From the NCBI GenBank assembly GCA_965153455.1, contig OZ234493.1, forward strand, positions 29,998,213-30,062,212: 64,000 nucleotides of DNA. Direction: 5' to 3'. The position numbers and the translations under genes were made by a program. The notes below the pieces were generated by a model, which did no database searches, was not told where the DNA came from, and saw nothing but the letters and a program-made list of their open reading frames with translations. The DNA comes from Sphagnum compactum (taxonomy: Eukaryota). Below, in pieces: positions 12,757 to 27,255 of the stretch; position 1 is the stretch's first letter; each line of letters opens with the position of its first letter.

Positions 12757-14821
12757 ATTTAAGTTTATGTGAATACATAGACCAAGGGGGTAGGTTATGA
12801 CACCTCCTTTTCCTCTCAGAAGCAGGGTTGTTTTATTTATTGTTTATTATTATTAAATTATAAATTATAATTAAAAAATTAAATTTAAGAAAAATCAATT
12901 TTGTGATGTAGTTGCGGTGGCCATCATCCATAAGATGATTTAACCAGATTTGGCTACATAGTAGACATGAAGATAGAAAAAACTAGAATTCTTTCATATT
13001 CTTGGCTACCATTCACAACTGAGTAATATTAGGTTTTCAATGGATGGTGCACTAGTGAGTGTTGAGTTACATGATCCCAAGTTAGAGCATCTTGGAGCTC
13101 TGCCAATACCCAATTTTGGGCCTCCAACAATATTTCACATTTGGTTTACTTAACCTTTCAACTAGTTTCATTCATAAACATCAAATTTGAAATTGTAAAA
13201 GGTGAGAGAATGCTAATAGCAAAATATTTGACCAATCATTCTATTAGGTAATCAAGAATAATTTTTAGATTTGTGTAGCTGCATTTTTTTGGTGACTAAA
13301 AGTAGTCAAAATGTTATGATAGAAATGCCATTGCTAAAAGTAAGAAAATAAATGGGATAAACATGAAAATATCGTCGAGATTTGTTTACTTTTCATGCCA
13401 TGGTAGCCATCACATGATTATAATGATAGTCTAGATTGCCACAAAAACTAAAGTCATCTAGATAGATTTGTAATTTTGCTCATTTTTATTAGAGAGTTAA
13501 TAGTTTATCGTCATCGCATGAATGAAATGTGCATCTTGTCGCACTGTCATTGTTGTGATGAACTTGTGTTATGTCTTGTTTGAATTGTCATTTCACAAAA
13601 TCTTTAGAGCTTTGGGGAACCAACACCTACATTGGTGGTATTTTAAAAGTTTTTGAGTGAGGCCTCCTAATGGCTAGAGTAAGGCTGAAAAATGTTAGGT
13701 TTGTACCCCAGAAATTCAGATTTAGTTTGAGCTTGGGATATTTTGTAATGTTTAGAAGTAATTTAAATTAATTTTGGGGTTTTTAGTTTTTACCACGGTA
13801 CCAATTTGGGTGTTGGTTCACCCAAAACTTAGGTGATGACTTTTTTTTTTAAATTATTATTTTTCATTTTTTTTGTTGGAACATGAGTGACTATGATCTC
13901 ACAAAAGATTTAGCATGAGAGGTGATGATCCCAAAAAAATTAGATTTAATGACAACAAGTATTTGAGGAAATTGTCCAAACAATTAAAAATAGCATGAAA
14001 ATCACTATAAAAATAAAATTTTAGTGAAATTTCCTTTGTCCTTGGATGCAACCTAGCATTTTAAACCTCATCTAGAAACCATGCGTGGTGAATTGGGAAA
14101 CTAAAAACTCATGTTATGGTGGTTGCACCTCCTTAGCGAAAGGTGAAATCAATCCATTAGAAAAGAAAAGGCTAGCGATATTCCTTGCAAAAGGATTGTA
14201 CCTATTTTTTGTACTTCTTTCTCTATGAAAATATGTGTTGCTTGAAGTCGTTATTGAAAATATATTTCATTTGTTTTAGTCTGAATTGCATTGTAAAATT
14301 ATAGCAAATTGAGAAAGAGTTTTAGTGTTTAAGTTAGTTTTGATTTTCGGTTCAATTCTTTTAAAGTTTTGAGCTTCATTTCACATTTTGGGCTACATCT
14401 TACTATCAATTTTGAAACTTTTGAAAAAACACATTTTAACAATGAACTTTCACCAAATTTATATTTAATTTATCTTTTCATAACCATTTTTGCTATTTTG
14501 GTGAAACAATCATTGTCACACATGCTCCAAAATGAAAAAAATCATTTTCCCTAGATGGATACAAGTAATTCATTATTTTTTTCATAAATGTGTGAGAAAA
14601 AATAACTAAAGTTTGCCAAAAATATCTTCACTTTTTTACACCAAGAGTCATCCATAAAAATTTCAAAAAGTCCATGAAAAGCATTATTACATAATTTGTT
14701 TGTAAGCACAACTAGTGTTTTTTTTTTTTCAATTTCTTGATCGAACATCTTCAAGCAAATTTCAGCTTAATTGGTGACATTATTTGGAGGAACTCTTTAA
14801 ATAGTTGACAATAGACATAAA

Positions 14822-15183
14822 TGTTGGAAATTGACAATGGATCAATAAGAAAATAAAGATGGTAAACATCTTTATTTATCACAAGCTCTCCACCCAACCT
14901 TAGGATCATGCCGATGTTGCTACAAACCTATGATCCACCCTCTAGCTCTTGTCTAATCCAAATACGAGGTGAACACCCCCATGCAAATGTTACCTACCTT
15001 AGAAGGCACATGTCATCTCATGCATTGAAATATTTCACACTAAACTTAATTAAAGAAATATAAGCAAACTTACTTAACATATCTCATGGTCCCAAAAATA
15101 TGTGCATGTAACACAAATATCTCAAATAACTATAAATTGGTAAAAACAATTTAAGTAACTTGGTAGGAAGTTGATATCCAACA
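14822..15183 (-). repeat. Copia 3' LTR
   Basis: TGTTGGAAATTGACAA...GTTGATATCCAACA, aligns along its length to 26723-27083. The adjacent minus-strand purine-rich tract AGTTGAGTGCGAG (15184-15196) is a decayed PPT. Confidence 0.93.
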
Positions 15184-15199
15184 CTCGCACTCAACTAAC

Positions 15200-16871
15200 T
15201 ATTAAATTATGCACTTAATCACACCCATCAAGTGTCAAAAATATTCATGATTATCAGTAGAAAATCCTTTGGTCAATATATCTACAACCATATTCTCCAT
15301 GTTGTAATACACCAACTTAACAAAGCCTTCTTCAACCTTCTTTTGCATTAAATGATGAAAAACCTCAATATGCTTCGTGCAAACATGAAAGACTTGGTTC
15401 TTTGATAAATATATACAATTTTGATTGTCATAATATATGACATGGGTTTCATTTGTGGAACACTAATGCTCCCAAAAAGTGATGAAAACCACATTGCTTG
15501 CCTTGTAACTTGTGAAGCTACCATATATTTTGCTTTCGTTAATGACATAACAATAGAGGTCTCTTTCTTGTTATTCCAACTACTAACACCATTTCCCAAT
15601 AAGAAAACATAATTTGATGTGGATTTGTGGTCATCCATATTGTTAGCCCAATATGCACCACAATAGGCACTTATTTGTGTGCTTCCATAAATAATATCAT
15701 AATCACCAATATTGGGACATAGGCTTTGGTAAACACTCCTTTCGGAATGTACTTAACCCATATTATTTTCATTAATTCCTTTGCTATGATAAATGTTTCT
15801 TTCCCAATGCATATGGCCCTTCATGTTCATGTTGGAACCTTGGCTATGGCTTATGTTTCTTTTGAAACATGTTTGGCCTTGGTTATGGTTTACATTTCCA
15901 TTAGAACGGGCCTACCCCCCCATGTTCCTTTTGGAACACTAACTATGACTTACATTCTTGTTAAAATGTGCCTTTCATGTTTTTTTTGTAGCCCTAGCTA
16001 TGGTTTACATTCTCACCAAAATGTGCTTGACCCTCATGTTCCTTTCGGAACCTTGGTTAAGGTTTACATTCTCATTATAATACACTTAGCCTTTCATGTT
16101 CTCTTTGAAACTTTGGCTATGGCTTACATTCTTGTCAAAATGCACATGGCCTCTTGTGCTTTTTTAGAACCTTGGTTATGGCTTACATTCTCGTCAGAAT
16201 GCGCTTGACCCTTCATATTCATTTCAGAACCCTGGCTATGGATTACATTCTCATCAAAATGCACCTTGCCCTTCATGTTTCTTTCAGAACCCTAGCTATG
16301 GCTTACATTCTTATCAAAATGTGTTTGACCCTTCATGTTCCTTTTCGAACCATGGCTATGATTTACGTTCCTTTCAAAATGTGTTTAACCCCAACTATGG
16401 TTAACATGCTCATTAGAATGCACTATGCCCATAATAACATCCTTGATGTTTTTTCTGAACACAAACCAAAATCCATTATGCCTTTCAAATAACAAAAAAA
16501 TTGTTTCATTACAATCCAATGTGATTGTCCAGAATTAACCATAAACTGGCTCACAACCCCCATTGCCTGTGCAATATTAAGTCTTATGTATACCATTGCA
16601 TACATGAGATTTCCAATAGTGTTTTGAAATAAGAGGCCCACATTACTTCTAAGTTTGCATCACCTTGAGGACCCATATCCTTCAAAAGCTTGCAATTGGT
16701 CATAAAAAGAGTTTAACTAACTTACTTCCAATCATTCCAAATTGCTTCAATATACCTCCAATGTATTTGTTTTGATTTCAATAAATCGCACAATTTTGTC
16801 AAACACGATTTATTTATATCCCCAAGCAATATTAGATCTCACCTAAATCCACCATTTCAAATTTTTTGGGT
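15200..16871 (-). pseudogene. Copia pol 3' part: C-terminal RT, repeat-containing linker, RNase H
   Basis: KKFEMVDLGE continues across the CACTA insertion. IGNLMYAMVYIRLNIAQAMGVVSQFM..HWIVMK..YLKG (RT end). AYWANNMDDHKSTSNYVF..SWNNKKETSIVMSLTKAKY (RNase H). Confidence 0.9.
15725..16425 (-). repeat. 60-bp tandem repeat (roughly ten or more degenerate units, some half units) inside Copia pol
   Basis: Unit ~CTTCATGTTCCTTTCGGAACCTTGGCTATGGCTTACATTCTCATCAAAATGCGCTTGACC, visible in register in lines 16021-16380. Confidence 0.9.
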
Positions 16872-17554
16872 CACTATTACAAAACATGGGTTTTTTTACT
16901 ACTAGTATAGTGATTAAGATGACTACATAGTCATTTTAGTTGCAATGTAATATGTCTAGTTTGACTAATAATGTCTAATTTGCTTAACATGAAAAGTAGG
17001 TATGTTTGTTGTGACTAAAACAAATTAGCACCTTAATCACATCAGACAATTGGATACACACGTGGCATGTGTGGCACCGACGTGGACTCATTTAATTTGA
17101 CTAAGATGACTGAAATCAATCATTGTAAGTTGACTAAATGTGACTATAATGCAACTTTTTATGAGGTGGCAATATGAAAATTAAAAAAAGATTATTTAAG
17201 TTTTTAAATAGTGAATTATTGGAAAATATGAAAAGACCATCAAGTTATCAGACGCTTGATTTATGTTTTCGATCATTCATAGTAAAATAGAAGTAGAGGC
17301 AACAATGGAAAAATAACAAAATGCATATGAGAAGTGAAAAAATGGAAGATTGAAACTGAAATTTTATACTAAAATGGTTTTTTGAACTTTGATTATTTAT
17401 GCACCATTGGCGAAGTTTCATAGATTGAACATATAAATGTCTAGTTCCTAACTAAACTAAACAGCAAGGATGGTCTAGCAATAATTGACCATCCTTTATG
17501 TTATAATTAATTAACCATCACTATCACAACTTGTTACATATTTCTTTGCACTAT

Positions 17555-20285
17555 CTACTCCATCATCTTCCCCCTCATGAGCAACCAATATAAATCTAAG
17601 GGTGCAACAGTAAAATTGCCTACGATTGTGGTAGGTTTAATGGAATCCTCAATGGAAATAGGAGCTTGTAAACATGTGTAATCATCAATGTTGTCAAGTC
17701 GGAACATATCAACTTCCATAAGGTCGGTTTGAATAGTTTTGGTTATTATCTCCCATAGGGATCTTTCCGTAGTATTACCTTCCACCCCCTTTCTTTTGGG
17801 TCACTAGAAAAAAAAACTTGCTCTACATGTAGGGGGAAAGCAAATGATTAGTCTAAAATGGAAATAAGGGATGAAAAGTTCACAAGTGTGAAACCATATT
17901 CATTTCGTTTAATTGTTGCACTATTCCCAATTGTAGTTTGCTTTCACCCAGTTGCACAACAAGACAACTATGTTGAGCACCCCATAATTTTGTTCCAGTA
18001 TCTCCTCAACCCAACCAACATATTCCAATTTTGCAAGAACTGGTCTTTGATCATTTGGGCTTGATATGCATTCTTGTTCAAAAGTTGCCACTACACCACA
18101 ATCACTTGTTGTTAGATGTTCTTCGGCACTTGCAACACGAATGTGATTGCCATAAGCATACATGGTTTGATATGACATGGCTTCCAATGTTGGAGGCATG
18201 GACATATGCACTATGGTTTTGTCAATTGTGTCCCCATCATTGGGAGTCACTACAATGGAAGCCTTTATCCATGTTGCAAAGGGGGGCAATGGAGCAAGGT
18301 CATTTGGGAACACAAGATTCCTTGCCCAAGACCAACCTTGAAGTAACAAAACAATTCTCCTCTTGATCCCGAATTTTAATTGATGTAAAATACTTCCTGC
18401 CAATACAACATGTAACACATAGTTAACGTTTACAATTCTTCAAATTTTCTAAAAATTCAAATTGCCAATACAAAATTGTGAAACAAGAAGTGGTTGTAAC
18501 CTAGTTACAACAATAACAACAATTCTTGATAAATTGAATGGTGTGACCTATTTAAGACATATTCTTAAAAGAACTATGCAACTTCATTATTAAGATAATT
18601 AATAACAATGAATACATTACTCACCCCATGTAGCCATTAGTCCCACATTTTGAAGCACTAAAGAATGGGCCATGTCCCAAATACATTCATAATTCGTGGA
18701 CGCCCACCACCTTCCAACACCTCATCAAACATGGAGGGGTTTTCTTTGTCATCCCACACCCTACGTCTTGTGGCTATAAAATCCATGAGATACCCAATGC
18801 AAAACCTGACCGTTTTCTCTATTGTGTATCTTTTTACCATACTTTAGGTTTTGTTATATTTCCCACATATCCTTTCAAGGTTTTCAAATACCTTTCAATA
18901 GGATACATCCACCCAGTTTGGACTAGACCACATAGTTCCAGCTCCTTAACTAAATGAATTAACAAATGTGTCATGACATCAAAAAATGAAGGAAGGAATT
19001 TTTGTTCTAACAAGGCTAAAGTGATTGCTACTTCCTTTTTCAAGTCCCCCATCACTGCCAAATCCACAACCTTGGCATACAACCTTTTGAAAACCCAACA
19101 CAAGTGAATAATTGCCATCCTACATTCCTTAGTCATAAGATGCCACATGCATAAAGGCAAGATTTCTTGCATCATAATGTGGTAGTCACGTGACTTCATG
19201 CCCTTTAAGTCCTAGTCCATGATTCTCTTCTTGAGTGAAAATACATAATGTGTAGGTGTCTTCAAAGTTTCAATAATTTGGATAAACCTTTCCTTCTCCT
19301 CATCTGTCAACACATATGATGATGCCGATTTAATGAAGCCACGGTCCATAACACTAGCTTGTAGCCACAAATGTGGCTAGATGTTGCACTCCTTCAAGTC
19401 TTCCCAAACTGCTATTGTGTCCTTTGTCCAAAATATGGCTTTCATCACATTTTCACAAATGTTTTTTTCACAATGCATCACATCTAGTGTGTTGCGAATG
19501 AGCAAACCCTAGCCAACAAACAATTAAATGAGATTAGTGTTTTTTATAAATCAAACCCTAACCTATTTTATTAAGTGTTGGGCCATGCTAATGTAAACAA
19601 GCAAATAACACAAAACTAATTGTGATTAAATGGTTTAGTTGAAGGGGACTTACCTCCCAGTATGGGAGTTTAAACATGATGGAATGTCGCTTGATGCCAT
19701 GTTTGGGTATAGGATCATGTTTTGAATTGGATCTGTTTCGTGGACCTTGTAACCACACTTCCCGTTCCTTGCCTCATTTCATGATGTTTAATGCATTTAC
19801 TCGCACGAGCACCACCCTATTTTCCGTTTCCCCATTGAAAGCACTTTGAGCCCATTGATATGGATGGGTCCATGGCAAATACCATCGACTCCCATAGTAA
19901 ATGACTTTCTTCAATTTCCTTGAATACTGTGATTCTACAGCTGGGCCACAAGGTGGGCATCCCACAAGACTTTTGGTAACACATCATGTAAATAACCCAT
20001 AGGCTGAAAAGTCATGGATGTTCCAAATGCACATAGCCCTTAAATTGAATGTTGCCCCTTGGAACGAATCAAAAGCTTTAACACCTTGCCACAACAACTA
20101 TAACTCTTCAATAAAAGGCTCCAAGCACACATCCATGTTTGCAGTGGTTAATGATTCCTTGCCAAGAATTATTAAAGCCAACATCAAAAAGTAATGTTTT
20201 GTTACCAACCAAGGTGGCAAATTGTAATTCAACAAAATTACTAGCCATGTAGAGTGACAAGAACTTGTCTCCAAATGGGTTCACC
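17555..20285 (-). pseudogene. CACTA transposase remnant (Transposase_21/DUF4218/DUF4216-like), 5'-truncated
   Basis: GVNPFGD, YNLPPW, MDVCLEPFIEEL, YWE|GLLIRNTLDVMHCEKN (intron ~19509-19654), MKSRDYHIMMQ, FFDVMTHLLIHLVKE, WMYPIERYLKTLKGYV, YVGWVEEILE..VVLLCNWV. Multiple stops. Confidence 0.9.
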
Positions 20286-21599
20286 CACTACTAGAATTCC
20301 TATTTTTTTTACTATAAATTTTGGCCCAAAAAGACCCATTTTGGATAGGCGTCAAAAAGACCTCCCAATCATTTTGGACAAGTCGTTTTGAACTTGTCCA
20401 TTGTGACTAGGCCATGTAATTTTTGACCAAGCTTAAGCAGGCATTTTTGACTAGTCATTTCAACTAGTACTTTTGACTAGTACTTTTGATTAGTCATTTT
20501 GACAAATCAATATAACAGTCAAATGATTTTTTGACAAGTCAAACACCATTTTGACTACATGGCATTTAAACAATGGCCACCCAAGTTAAGCCATGTGGCA
20601 TTTAAACATTAGCCACCTAGGTTATGCCACGTGGCATTTAAACATTGGCCACTAGGTTATGCCACATGGATAGAACCTAAATAACTTAAGTTAGACTTAA
20701 AATTAGATACTTGCTCCTAAGGTCCCTATGTCTAGGAACCTACAACCTAAACTCCTAGGTCTAGGTTTAGGAGCCTATAATTAGCAACTAGGTATAAAAG
20801 CCTAAATTAGGTTATGGCAACTTAAACTATGACCTTTACTAGGCTTAAATGTACACCACTTAAATTAAGCTTACACCTAGTTGACCTAGGTAGGAAAATC
20901 CTATTTCATTTTGAATTTAACCTTTAAAGTTGAGCCTTTTCAATTGGTTCATCCCAAGTGGCCTTCCTTTTAAAAATATTTCTTATGTCTTCAATGTTTA
21001 TGGTGCATCTATTTATATTGTTCATCATTTGGAAAGGATGACAAACAATATGGGACAAACTTTTGGAAGGGAAAAACATTTTCATGTCCACACAACACTA
21101 GAACCTTTTAGTTCACACAACATTATTCCTAAATAAATATGTAAGATACATAAATGAAGTAAATAAATAAATAAAGAGGTAGGTGAATTTGTATGTTAAT
21201 TAAGTTAAAATAAAAATTAGTAATAGTTAATGTCTAATTAGTTAGTTATAATTTAATTACAACCATATTATAAATCCTTGAATTATATAAAATATTAAAA
21301 TAATTATAATATACTATATTGTTGATTGATAATTACAACCAAAATATAACTAATCCTTACAAATTTGACCTAATTCATTATATATTATCAACAATGTATT
21401 TGTAATAATTAATAATTAGTGTATTTTAGGTAAATAACCAACTAATAATTTATCATAGGTATATAAATGGCCTACCTTACCCTATATAACTAAGTTACCT
21501 ATAGGCTAAAATATAGGTAAATACGTGGAATATAGGTAGGGTATGTCTAAATAAATACACCTACATATATGTTAATTGTATTTAGGTCATGTAACCACA

Positions 21600-22775
21600 T
21601 ACTTACATTACATAAGTTAAATAGGCGGTTAATTTAACCTAGGAAAAATGAATTATGGAAAAATCAATGATTATTAAACTAATAATGGCTAAACCAACCA
21701 AAAATTAAAAATAATTATGGAAAAAGCATCCATGACTAAACTAATTATGCTTCAATTAACCATATTTAAATAAATATGGTGAAACTAACCATGAATAAAG
21801 TAAATAAAGCCAAGCTAACCAATGAATAACTATTTTATGGCTAAACCAACTATGCATAAATTAATTATGGCTCAAATCAAAATAAACGAAATAATTATGC
21901 CTAAAATCAAAATGGTGAAAATATTTATGGCAAAATTAAACATGGCAAAACTAGAAATGGTTAAATCATGAGTAAATAAATTTGGCTAAACTAACCACTA
22001 ATAAAATTAATATGGTTAAACTAACTAATGAATAAATATTTTATGGCAAAACCAATTATGTAAATTAAATTACGACTAAAATAAACATGAATGAAATAAT
22101 TATGGCTAAAATCAAAATGATTAAAATAATTATGGCAAAATTAAACATGGCTAAACTATAAATGGTTAAACTAACCATGAGTAAATAAATTTGGCTAAAC
22201 TAACCATTAATAAAGTTAATATGGCTTAATTAACTATTGAATTTTATTTTTTTGGAAAAATCAATTATGCAAAAATTTATTGTGACTAAAATAGACAAGA
22301 ATGAAATAATTATGGCTAAAATGAAAATGGTTTAAATAATTATGGTAGAACCAACCATGGTTATTTTAGTAACTATAAGTAAAATGAATTTGGCTAAAAT
22401 AAACATTTGTGAAATAATTATGGCTAAAATAAATTTTAAAAAATAATTATGGCAAAACCAACCATGGCTAAATTAACAATAATTTTAAATTAATTATGGG
22501 TATATTGATTATGGTTAAATTTAGTAGGGTAAAATAATAATATGTTAAAAATAAATATGACTAATTTAGTTATGCTTACAGTAACCATGGTTAAATTCAT
22601 TATGGCAAAACTAATTATCATGGCTAAACTTAGTAAAGTTAAACCAATTATTGTTAAATTGACCATGGTTAAAATATTTATGATTGTTAAACTACTTATG
22701 GCTAAATTAACCATAATTAAATTAAATATGACCAAATAAATGATGGAATAATTAATTATGGTTAACTGAATCAAG
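21600..22775. repeat. AT-rich ~15-bp degenerate minisatellite inside CACTA
   Basis: Recurrent AACTAACCATGGCTA / AATAATTATGGCTAA units over more than 1 kb. Confidence 0.85.
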
Positions 22776-22954
22776 GTAATGTATATCTATATGTTGTATG
22801 TGTAGTACCATAATGTAAGGTTCAAGTTACAAGCTACAACAAAATGTTGCAAGATTTTAATTAGTAAGTACCAATAAACATAAGTGGAAGACTAATTTGG
22901 CATGTTATTAATCATGTACACATAATCAACATTAGTCAAAAAGTCAATCACAAT

Positions 22955-23370
22955 AGACAACCATGTGGCACCTAAATATATGGGTTGATTTTATTAGTTA
23001 GTTTAGTCACAAAGACATGACATGTGTCACTTAAATACGAGTTAATTTTATTAATCACTTAAATCACAAAGACATGACATGTGTCACCCATGTATAGGTT
23101 ACTATTTTAATGATCTTAGTCATAATGGACATACCACGTGTCCCTCGATTATTAATTGCTTATTAATCGCTTCAGTCAAAACAGACAAAACATGTGCCAC
23201 CTAGTTATTAGCTACCTTTTTAGTCATTATAGTTAGAACAGATAGGACGTGTCACCTAGATATAAGCTATCTTGTTAGTAATATCAGTTAGGATGACAAG
23301 ACACGTGTCATTCAAATATAGGCCACCATTTTAATCACCTCAATTACTGTAAATAAGCCATGTGGCATCC
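22955..23370. repeat. CACTA subterminal ~57-bp repeats with CACGTG/CATGTG cores
   Basis: About 8 units each containing (C/G)A(C/T)GTG(T/G)C. A related ~35-bp repeat GCCA(C/T)GTGGCATTTAAACA lies at 20555-20670. Confidence 0.8.
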
Positions 23371-23585
23371 ACATCAATTAGGAACTTAGTCAGGTTTGTC
23401 AGAATAGACATTAAACACTTTAATCAAATTAGACACACAAATAGTCACTTAGACAAAATAGATTCAATCATAATTTTATTTTAAACGACTAGTCTGTTTT
23501 GACTAAGGACATTTTTGTCCATTGTCCATAATGACTGAAATTTCAGTCATAAAAACCAACATAAAAACAACATTATTTAATAGTG

Positions 23586-26549
23586 GGTAGATTATCCTTT
23601 GTTTCTTTCAATAAAGTCAAATCATTAAAAGCCAAAATCAAATCATCAACATACAAAGTTATGTCACATAAGAATTTTATTGAATTTTTTAAAAATAAAT
23701 TCATTGTGGTCAACAAAACTCTTTTAAATTTTTTGAGATAAGAAATATGCATTAATCTTGTTCCATTCACAAGGAAATTGCTTCAAACCATACAAGGATT
23801 TTTGAAGCTTACATACCATATTCTCCTTATCATTGACCACAAAGCCTTTTGGTTGTTGCATATATATTTCCTCTAAAAACTTTCCATTCAGAAAACCAAT
23901 TTTAACATCCATTTGATGCACCTCAAGATCTTCAATGGTTACAATTACAAGTAAAGCTTGAATTGATTCCATTCATGCAACATGGGAAAAGGTTTCATAA
24001 AAATCAATACCTTCAACTTGTGTAAATCCCTTGGCCACCAAACGAGCCTTGTGCTTTGCCACAAAGTCGTCAACATTATATTTGATCGTGAAAATCCATT
24101 TCCAATTCACTAGTTTGTGATCAGGTGGAAGAGGAATAAGTATGCAAGTTTTATTGTCTTGTAAAGATTAAAACTTAGAATCCATGGCCTTTTTCCAATG
24201 TTGTGAATCTTCACCATTCAAAGCATCCGCAAAAAAATGGGGTTCATCAACATCAACAAAGAAAACATATGAAAGATTCACATTTTCTTCAACCATTGTT
24301 AGATTTTCTCGCACCTATTGACAAATTCTTTCATCCTCCATCTTTAGTCCTTGATTTAAAATCATATGTTCTGATTCAAAATCCAACCTCAAAACCATTA
24401 TTTCCTCATTAAATTTTTTGGATTCATCAAAAACATCACGATTGATGATAACATATTGGCTTATAGGGTTGTAAAATTTATACCTTTTAAACTTTTCACA
24501 ATAACTAATGAATATGTGCATTTCACACCTTTGAAATCTAACTTTGTCCTTGCTTCATTTAGCACATGAACAAATGCAACACAACCAAAAACATGCGAAT
24601 GACTTTGCACACCAAACCTCTTTTGATTTCATGTTGGAAATTGCCTTGGTAGGGATTCAATTTTGGATATATGTTGCAATTGCCATTACTTCTACCTATA
24701 ATTTATGATCTAACTACATATGTTGTAACATACATCGCACACTTTCAACAAATGTTCGATTATTCCTTTCAACTAAACCATTCCACTTTGGTGTGTATGG
24801 AATTTTTATCTATTTTTCAATGCCATTCTCCTTGTAGAAATATGTATTGAGATTTTAAAAGTTAACTCCCCACCTCCATCACATCTGATTACCTTGATAT
24901 TCTTTCTAGTCTAATTTTCTATCAAAGCTTTGAAAACCTTAATCTTGTTTAACACACCAAATTTAGTTTTAATGTTATAAAGAAATGTCTTCCTAGAGAA
25001 ATCATCAATGAAGGTTAGAAAATACTTTACCCTTTCATGAAATGTGGCCATGAGACCACATAGGTTCACATGCATAAACCCACGAATTTCTTTTGCATGA
25101 GAACCCCCACTCAAAGGAAATGGGGTACAATGGTGTTTACCATACACCTCCATTACAGCGGCAAAATTCAAGTCATGATCTCCATTGAGATCCATGCATT
25201 TAACAAGGTTATTTCTATCCATGGTTGTTAAAATTTGCATATAGACATGTTTGAGTCTTTATGCCACAAATCATTTTTTAAAATATTGGTGCTACATTTT
25301 GCAACCAAGGATTGAGTAATTCTAACCAACTTATATAACTTTCTTTTTTAAACAACTTCAACAACCACTTTTTTTGAATGAGAAGACTTCAACCAACATC
25401 TGGTGGCTTTAAATTCCACCTTAAAGCTTTGCTCTGTAAATTGATTAATCGATAATAGATTTTTTGTCAACTTTGGAACATATGACGCATCTTTAATACA
25501 CTTGGAAATCCCATTTGGCAAGTTGAAGACAATAGTGCCTTCCCACATACATCAAGCATACCATTGTCTCCAAGATATACTTTGTGATTCAAAGTAAATT
25601 ACTCAAAGGTTAAAAATACTTAATTCTGAAAGGTCAAATGTTGTAAAGCTCCAAAATCAGTAAACCATGCATCCCTACAAACTAAAAAAATGGATAAAAC
25701 AATCACAAGAAGTTCAATATTGCTTTTTGTGGTTATTTGTGAAGAACCTTTGAATTTGTTCTTTCAATCTTGTTTCTTCTTGTGACATTCTCTTGTAAAA
25801 TGGCTTTGGTGCCACAATTATAGCAAGCTCTTTTCGTCTCTTGCTTTTCATTTTTGAATTTTCCTTTAATCTACATCCCTTTTGAACTTCCCAAAAACAC
25901 CTTTAACAATTAATGTCTCATGTATTGTACTATGGTTAAATTGCACTTCGCACTTACATCACAATTCTTTTTGCAACAATTGTCCACATACTAACTCCAT
26001 AAACAATTGATCACTGCGAACATTAAGTGAAACCACAAGGGTATGTAAAGATGGTGGCAAATTCCTGAAAAATGTGAATGCCAAATCTTCATAAAAAATT
26101 TGATGATTAATGTTTGTTAACTGATCTGTAATCATCCAAAGCTTGTTAATATGAACTTGCACAAATGTGCTTTCTACATTTTAAGATTGTAAAGCTTTTG
26201 ATGTAATTACAATTTATTGTTAACATGTCTTTTCTCAAATGTTGCACAAAAATTGTCCCATACATCTTTTGCAATTTCTGTACATGCTACATAATGTAAT
26301 AGAGAATCAACAACATTTAAGAATATTGTTCCATGAACCAATTTGTCTTTCTTCATGAATAAACAACGTTCAAGACCACCTCTTTCAAAAACAATTTATA
26401 CAAATTCAACTTTTGGGTGTAATAATTTTCCTAAGGTGATCTCTCACAAATCTTTTTCATGCAGGAGAAATTCCATCTTCATTTTCCATGTATGAAAAGT
26501 ATTACCATTTAACTTTTCAATACTTCAAGCATCAAAAGTGGACGCCATG
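23586..26549 (-). pseudogene. Copia gag-pol 5' part: gag/UBN2, zinc knuckle, protease, integrase, N-terminal RT; many stops and frameshifts
   Basis: ORF fragments: LPPSLHTLVVSL (gag), CYNCG...HFTREC knuckle ~25785-25825, WFTDFGALQHLT protease, YVPKLTKNLLSINQ, KYFLTFIDDFSRK (integrase), VHQMDVKIGFLNG..EEIYMQQPKGF..VCKLQKSLYGLKQ and LYVDDLIL (RT). Confidence 0.92.
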
Positions 26550-26722
26550 ATTGTGAGTTGAACAAATGCCCCAAAACAAAACACTTAAAACTTTAAAACT
26601 TTCAGCAAAATGCTAAAAACACACACACACACACACACACACAATGTTTCAAAGCTTTCAAAAAAGTGTAGAAAACACCTTCAATCATCCTTTCCCTCAA
26701 AAACAACCATGCTCTAATATTA

Positions 26723-27083
26723 TGTTGAAAGTTGACAACATATTGATAAGAAAATAGAGATGATAAAACATTGATTTATCACGAGCTTTTCACCCAACCT
26801 TAAGATCACACAAATACAATTGCTACAAACTTACGATCCACCCTCGAACCCTTGCCTAATCTAAATAGGAGGTGAACACCCTCATGCAAATGTTATTTAT
26901 CTTAGAAGGCACATGGATAAGGTCATCATCTCTTGCATTAATATATTTCACACTAAACTTAACTAGAGATATTTAAGTGAAACTTATTTAACATATCTCA
27001 TAGTCCCAAAAGTACATGTATGTAACACAAATATCTCAAGTAACTATAACTTAAGTAACTTGGCATGAAGTTGATATCCAACA
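26723..27083 (-). repeat. Copia 5' LTR
   Basis: TGTTGAAAGTTGACAA...GTTGATATCCAACA, followed on the minus strand by TAATATTAGAGC (26711-26722), a transition-mutated TGGTATCAGAGC PBS. Confidence 0.93.
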
Positions 27084-27255
27084 ATAAATCTGACGACACC
27101 CTCCCGAGAAAACAGTTTTCCATTAATTTTTAAGTGATTTTTTCCGCTAAAAAGCAATTTATGACAGAAAATTCTATCACACACTCTGTCACCCACTCCC
27201 ATTTGAAATTCCAAGAAAATTCCCTTTTGCCTGACCAAGTGTTCAGGGGTTAATA

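Follow-up and report, generated by a model that had tools for sequence, protein, structure and literature searches.

How does a tandem repeat come to lie within the pol gene of a Copia retrotransposon, between the reverse transcriptase (RT) and the RNase H, and was it ever a part of the protein? The question is raised by a window of 64,000 nucleotides of Sphagnum compactum DNA (contig OZ234493.1), the whole stretch analysed here. A sequence-only reading of the window had noticed a 60-bp repeat at this place in a Copia pol. It proposed that the active ancestor encoded a repetitive tether of about 250 residues there, which might define an undescribed Copia architecture. We found that the 60-bp repeat between RT and RNase H is real and that the peptides quoted for it are present in the translation. 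We then asked what element carries it, whether other copies share it, and what its reading frame says about its past.

The host of the repeat is a structurally complete but decayed Ty1/copia element on the minus strand (27083-14822), flanked by the target-site duplication (TSD) TTTAT. The same five bases stand beside the 5' LTR (27084-27088) and beside the 3' LTR (14817-14821). The 5' LTR (26723-27083, minus strand), with TG start and CA end, and the 3' LTR (14822-15183, minus strand) were delimited by a BLAST pair (14821-15183 against 26722-27083) and by global alignment, and loose ends of reads at 15183 and 14821-14822 mark both ends of the latter. In the global alignment 302 of 360 positions of the two LTRs are identical (84%), which corresponds to a K2P distance of 0.186. 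At a plant substitution rate of 1.3e-8 per site per year, this divergence would place the insertion roughly 7 million years ago, a figure good only to the order of magnitude. Adjoining the 5' LTR, the sequence context reveals a decayed, putative primer-binding site of 12 nt (26711-26722, minus strand), which would be complementary to the 3' end of tRNA-Met; reads of other copies, with loose ends at 14821, continue past the LTR end with a better-preserved version of it. The 5' untranslated leader that separates this site from gag contains a (GT)n microsatellite at about 26610-26640 (minus strand).

The coding parts of the element follow on the same strand. The gag region (26002-26569) was recognized by Pfam as Retrotran_gag_2 (PF14223, E 2e-10) when stops were read as X. 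A heavily decayed, putative integrase-like stretch (24501-25100) was seen by eye in the three-frame translation, and no integrase family was detected by Pfam in the read-through of the element. The N-terminal part of RT (23589-24200), in which the YVDD region is visible, matches RVT_2 at 23667-24200 with an E value of 7.4e-42. The C-terminal part of RT (16459-16868) ends in YLKG..DFGLC in the translation and is 43-55% identical to Copia polyproteins by BLASTP. Beyond the repeat, a short conserved tail followed by RNase H reaches to the end of pol (15235-15716). This region is represented by the ORFs 15348-15752 and 15235-15462, with 32-40% BLASTP identity to Copia RNase H. The order of gag, RT and RNase H on one strand, with the integrase placed between them by eye, and the TG..CA LTRs flanked by a 5-bp TSD are those of Ty1/copia elements.

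The RVT_2 match covers profile positions 1-141 of 244 only, because the RT is split by a nested CACTA-type DNA transposon of 6.7 kb (16872-23585), which also accounts for the RT core missing from the window. The transposon has CACTA...TAGTG ends, is bordered by a GGT duplication (16869-16871 and 23586-23588) and harbours a DUF4218 domain (18834-19211, minus strand, E 5e-23). At 16864, reads from other copies of the family continue without interruption. The order RT, repeat, RNase H that had been read from the sequence was confirmed, but the RT in this copy is not contiguous. The transposon further contains long subterminal arrays of 30-bp repeats (21675-22770), and the same CACTA insertion is present at the orthologous locus of organism B.

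The tandem array lies on the minus strand at about 15717-16458, between the end of RT (DFGLC) and the start of RNase H. Tandem Repeats Finder reported, at 15992-16391, a period of 60 with 6.7 copies, 75% matches and a score of 360, and a direct-repeat finder reported nine copies of 66 nt from 15815 to 16392. A profile built from eight units gave 11 matches with E values of at most 2.7e-4, all on the minus strand, at 15816-16423. By alignment of the flanks, the array reaches from just past the Cys codon of DFGLC (about 16458) to about 15717, and the 40 nt after this codon align with the last unit junction as the tail of a unit. Repeat finders, unit profile and flank alignment together describe a head segment followed by approximately 12 units, each measuring either 60 nt (20 aa) or 39 nt (13 aa). 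The array of the window amounts to about 12-13 units, two of which are of the short, 39-nt type. From the end of the GL motif (16462) to the start of RNase H (15674), the spacing is 787 nt, so that the long insert claimed by the sequence-only reading stands and its length of about 750 bp is corrected slightly upward. In the rest of the 64-kb window, the eight-unit profile found no unit match below E 0.46.

The site of the array is an interdomain linker, whose length we determined in ordinary Copia proteins. Among 120 Copia proteins fetched with the N-terminal part of RT, 26 yielded a total of 29 motif pairs. The spacer between RT and RNase H was 6-9 residues long in 28 of the 29 pairs and 14 in the remaining one. 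The linker had been given as about ten residues, which is right in that it is short and a little too long as a figure. A short linker is typical of Ty1/copia elements, though not formally defining, and the 787 nt found here depart from it. The closest proteins that lack an array, P0088 and P0060, are 55% and 48% identical in the C-terminal part of RT, respectively, and both have an ordinary short spacer. Protein names among the Copia matches are generic ("TNT 1-94") and assign no lineage.

The peptide encoded by the repeat consists of 16% Asn, 12.5% Ser, 10% His, 10% Gly and 9% Lys; 75% of its residues are polar, and the mean Kyte-Doolittle hydropathy is -1.3. Pfam assigned no family to the repeat ORFs or to the ORFs at the RT end, and a search of the ESM Atlas with the database ORF P0002 returned no usable match. 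An AlphaFold2 model from single sequence reached a mean pLDDT of 48 and left the repeats without secondary structure. The low pLDDT would be consistent with disorder, for which a single-sequence prediction is weak evidence. Neither Pfam nor the single-sequence AlphaFold2 model revealed an RNase H-like fold or family in the extra segment.

The sequence-only reading had the repeat running in frame into RNase H, interrupted by a few stops from C>T decay and some single-base indels. The first part holds, since the last units and RNase H share one frame in the ORF 15348-15752, which begins in the last unit. The decay is heavier than had been described: at least seven stops interrupt the array frame in the window copy, and the frame changes four times between RT and RNase H, once exactly at the junction of RT and array. 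As read from the translation, every stop occupies the place of a Gln codon in other units, which is the pattern that C>T decay would leave.

We next examined whether the array is shared by other copies. We compared the window, at 80% likeness, with raw reads from its own species and with contigs from three organisms. The summed depth of the raw reads was about 17-34 over the RT and RNase H flanks, 3.4-13 in the bins of the array and about 1.5-4 at the unique edges. From the depth of the flanks against that of the unique edges, the number of family copies is therefore on the order of ten or more. A paralogous contig of organism B (1768 nt) passes from the C-terminal part of RT through the end of an array into RNase H, with 347 nt between instead of 546, and another contig of organism B represents the orthologous locus at 96% identity. 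Pieces of the array were also found in organism D. Among the best 15 of 317 joints in reads and contigs at least 80% alike, none skipped the whole array. Nor was a freely amplified array seen in the window or in the four read and contig runs at this likeness. With no unit elsewhere in the window and a read depth of the array below that of its flanks, the array is not an independent satellite, which the sequence-only reading had named as a ground for refutation.

A second set of copies came from metagenome contigs, which were scanned with patterns taken from an alignment of the in-frame ORFs. The search patterns included the head of the array, so that array-less relatives could not match; only the read comparison is free of this bias toward array-bearing copies. 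The scan returned 80 loci, of which 79 had at least two unit matches and one (L004) had none. At 97% identity they fall into 50 groups, that is, about 50 distinct copies. None of them is the locus of the window, to which the best are 76-81% identical. The distance from RT to RNase H was 365-1784 nt, with a median of 570, in all 30 of the 50 representatives in which both flanks are present. Expressed in codons, the encoded segment ranges from about 120 to 590 across copies, with about 250 in the window; the longest distances may include further insertions. Alignments of the array head and of the array tail comprise 38 sequences each, and the site, head and tail are constant in the copies recovered. 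The number of units is not: 14 unit matches over 1.3 kb were counted in L047 and only two in each of L011, L012 and L017. The metagenome contigs, up to approximately 198 kb in length, carry decayed copies of a plant-type Copia family and are evidently host DNA within the samples.

A separate observation concerns the RT part upstream of the array. Twelve raw reads of the window's species (organism A) and several contigs of three organisms leave the window at 16713 and continue with one common, different sequence (agreement 0.94), and 36 of 47 metagenome copies run normally to 16860. The departure at 16713 is likely to mark a rearranged or recombinant subfamily.

Protein databases were searched as well, as the sequence-only reading had suggested. 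We queried 1.84 billion representative proteins by phmmer with the read-through of 16124-16534 and obtained 17 matches. Of these, thirteen are repeat-bearing ORFs of 34-92 aa, and the other four, which are long, are by inspection unrelated repeat proteins. The peptide is on record in short ORFs but not in a long protein: phmmer found no polyprotein with the array among the 1.84 billion representatives, and neither the repeat nor the RNase H ORF matched any longer protein in a word-index search. Nine of the 13 repeat ORFs span the end of RT and the head of the array. In P0017, P0005, P0002 and P0012 the RT frame reads straight through into the array; P0004 spans the same region with an out-of-frame detour, and P0008, P0009, P0015 and P0016 enter the array from another frame. 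The short first unit is common to the window and the other copies. The clusters to which the repeat ORFs belong are small, with 1-4 members from 1-7 contigs, and seven of the ten ORFs that were looked up are named "hypothetical protein".

The frame of the array was then assessed across copies. In the 50 representatives, 214 spacings between adjacent units were measured, the most frequent being 60 nt (96) and 39 nt (66), followed by 78 (9), 99 (6), 63 (3) and 33 nt (2). Of all spacings, 183 are divisible by three and the remainder are off by one or two. It is unlikely that two frame-keeping unit sizes arose by chance, the expectation being roughly one in nine if the sizes are independent. The slice at the RT/array junction has an in-frame length in 27 of 38 sequences, and the one-base gap of the window at this junction is common to none of the 37 others. 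In L006 an ORF of 191 aa extends from RT through 34 residues of the array, and in L010 an ORF of 84 aa leads from the last unit into RNase H. The former is the longest ORF that touches the array, the longest sense ORF anywhere in the elements being 218 aa. An uninterrupted frame through RT, array and RNase H was found in none of the about 50 copies. The proposed tether in the ancestor gains from the family-wide array, its frame-keeping units and the RT frame kept in 27 of 38 junctions, and lacks an open RT-array-RNase H frame among these copies.

At position 16457 copies differ by one base. Nine of 18 raw reads (X21) carry the non-window state, as do 6-10 contigs in each contig run, and RT and array then form one frame. 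The out-of-frame state accounts for about half of the reads at 16457 and for P0008, P0009, P0015 and P0016. We considered whether these nine of 18 reads and four ORFs stand for a common subfamily with a frameshift at the junction. The candidate was not borne out among the metagenome copies, of which 0 of 37 share the gap of the window; within the window's own species, the state of the window may still mark a subfamily.

All three antisense frames of the unit are also open. The openness of the pol frame is therefore weak evidence by itself, being partly compositional. On the plus strand, stop-free ORFs at 15723-16208 (161 codons) and 16109-16492 (127 codons) encode hydrophobic repeats. Such antisense ORFs of the array result from its composition and can mislead gene-calling programs.

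A test of codon positions among the units, which had also been suggested, had no power to decide on selection. Within the window, the third-position excess was significant with 10 units (p = 0.018) but not with the eight well-aligned ones (p = 0.12), and the frames were not separated: pN/pS was 0.40 in the pol frame versus 0.44 and 0.48 in two other frames. Among copies, the RT control itself had no third-position excess (0.224, 0.226 and 0.178), and for this reason the signal at the head of the array (p = 0.03) is not readable as selection. Nearly all of the divergence between copies is decay after insertion. The units of the window differ from one another by approximately 0.27 per site, versus 0.16 between the two LTRs; the array is therefore older than the insertion of the window copy.

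Two simple origins of the unit were tried and found no support. A duplication that left a second, decayed RT-end motif before RNase H was sought by local alignment of the DNA, and the best score of 28, reached by 14 of 300 shuffles, does not rise above chance. Derivation of the unit from the RT-end motif was likewise dropped, since the unit profile has no match upstream of 16458.

We consider it probable, with some room for doubt, that the array is a minisatellite which grew in frame from the RT/RNase H linker of a Ty1/copia family, was inherited by its copies and was most likely translated as a tolerated tether. The architecture itself, its sharing across copies and its frame relations were observed directly. 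The minisatellite would have arisen at the boundary of the two domains, and replicating elements would have passed it on to every daughter copy. Its units, of 60 and 39 nt, both keep the frame, and neither the head that follows DFGLC-F nor the tail that precedes RNase H varies. Changes in unit number would be due, most likely, to template switching during reverse transcription or to unequal recombination. Active elements most likely translated the array, whose peptide is very hydrophilic, as a flexible, disordered tether, and its position in a linker between two domains may be why it was tolerated. The family has since died out; its copy in the window is old, riddled with stops and frameshifts and interrupted by the CACTA transposon. 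The array is probably not a domain selected for a function. That selection maintained it as a functional component of the enzyme in an autonomous Copia family, with a role of its own such as binding of metal or nucleic acid or assembly of the particle, seems unlikely to us. Such an element would have held RT and RNase H 120-500 residues apart by His/Asn/Ser-rich repeats, their number tuned by template switching, and if this is true, the array would be the first extra pol module described in plant Copia elements.

The main rival holds that the array arose in dispensable pol sequence of defective riders, for which an array-less autonomous relative provided RT and RNase H in trans. The relative would have driven the multiplication of these copies, and the repeat would at no time have belonged to a functional enzyme. 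We regard this as possible, though not probable. It would explain why no copy in the about 50 groups is intact, why several database ORFs and nine of 18 reads at 16457 have an out-of-frame junction, and why codon-position and pN/pS tests do not separate the frames; the 12 organism A reads that depart at 16713 (agreement 0.94) add a hint of a rearranged subfamily. Against it stand the unit sizes and the rarer spacing classes, which are multiples of three, the in-frame state of 27 of 38 junctions and the absence of the one-base gap of the window from all 37 others. The copies also keep gag, RT and RNase H in normal order. No candidate partner was seen, the closest array-less proteins being 43-55% identical in the C-terminal part of RT, and no array-less joint was among the best 15 of 317 (reads at least 80% alike). 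Foreign DNA, either a satellite or another mobile element, may instead have landed in the pol of a founder. No resemblance of the unit to the RT or RNase H sequence beside it was detected, and the closest array-less Copia proteins have nothing similar at the site. Yet neither terminal repeats nor a TSD of its own were found at the borders of the array in the window, and the unit is absent from the rest of the window. The array depth of 3.4-13, below the 17-34 of the flanks, speaks against an abundant free satellite at 80% likeness or more. All 13 related database ORFs belong to the present Copia family, the four long matches being, by inspection, unrelated repeat proteins. We therefore hold a foreign origin to be improbable. 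If the array had been spliced out of the pol message, its frame would be irrelevant. Splicing in retrotransposons has a precedent in Ogre elements, which have an intron removed in this way, but the frame-keeping unit sizes would then be a coincidence, and by eye no conserved pair of splice sites joins RT to RNase H in frame. This leaves splicing with very little probability. As for an expansion in the window copy alone after its insertion, minisatellites can expand in place, but 79 of 80 metagenome loci, the 13 database ORFs and contigs of organisms B and D all have the array at the same site, which refutes a private expansion and reduces its probability to practically nothing. These same occurrences bear out the family architecture that the sequence-only reading had put forward: the array is a family trait, not a private expansion.

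That a family multiplied with a variable, frame-keeping repeat at this place suggests that the RT/RNase H junction of Copia elements tolerates very long insertions. The family thus offers a natural case for asking how far the activities of RT and RNase H can be separated. There is a practical side as well. Arrays of this kind break the domain-based annotation of RT and RNase H and yield spurious ORFs on both strands, and the 13 related ORFs in the database, all short predictions, are fragments of the present Copia family.

In the literature searched, supplementary files excepted, no Copia element with a repeat between its RT and RNase H came to light, and the proposal of an undescribed architecture stands to this extent. 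The accessible part of one source (PMC6317226) regards plant Copia elements as structurally uniform and as differing only in the type of primer-binding site and in extra ORFs. With ordinary plant Ty1/copia elements (Pseudoviridae; nearest P0088 and P0060), the present family shares the order of gag, putative integrase, RT and RNase H, the TG..CA LTRs, the 5-bp target duplication and the matches to RVT_2 and Copia gag, and it has a putative primer-binding site beside the 5' LTR. It differs in the distance from the GL.Y motif to the first strand of RNase H, which is 6-9 residues in the former, whereas 365-1784 nt of repeats lie there in the latter.

Tandem repeats are known from other parts of plant LTR retrotransposons. 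They lie in LTRs and untranslated regions, and some seed satellites. The cranberry survey, in its available portion, places retrotransposon tandem repeats in LTRs and UTRs and says that coding sequence contains none (10.1101/2021.07.15.452536). The likeness to our case consists in an array of minisatellite scale that is copied together with the retrotransposon and varies in unit number between copies. Unlike those non-coding repeats, the array described here lies inside pol, in frame between RT and RNase H, with no free amplification seen.

The nearest functional analogues may be the tether (connection) domain of retroviruses and the dual RNase H of Tat elements, which also place an extra polypeptide between the polymerase and the active RNase H. 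As stated in the accessible part of PMC4408406, this polypeptide is thought to affect how RNase H and its substrate meet. There the extra part consists of folded, degenerate RNase H domains in Ty3/gypsy-type elements and retroviruses, whereas here it is a low-complexity repeat, with no family match or predicted fold, in a Copia element.
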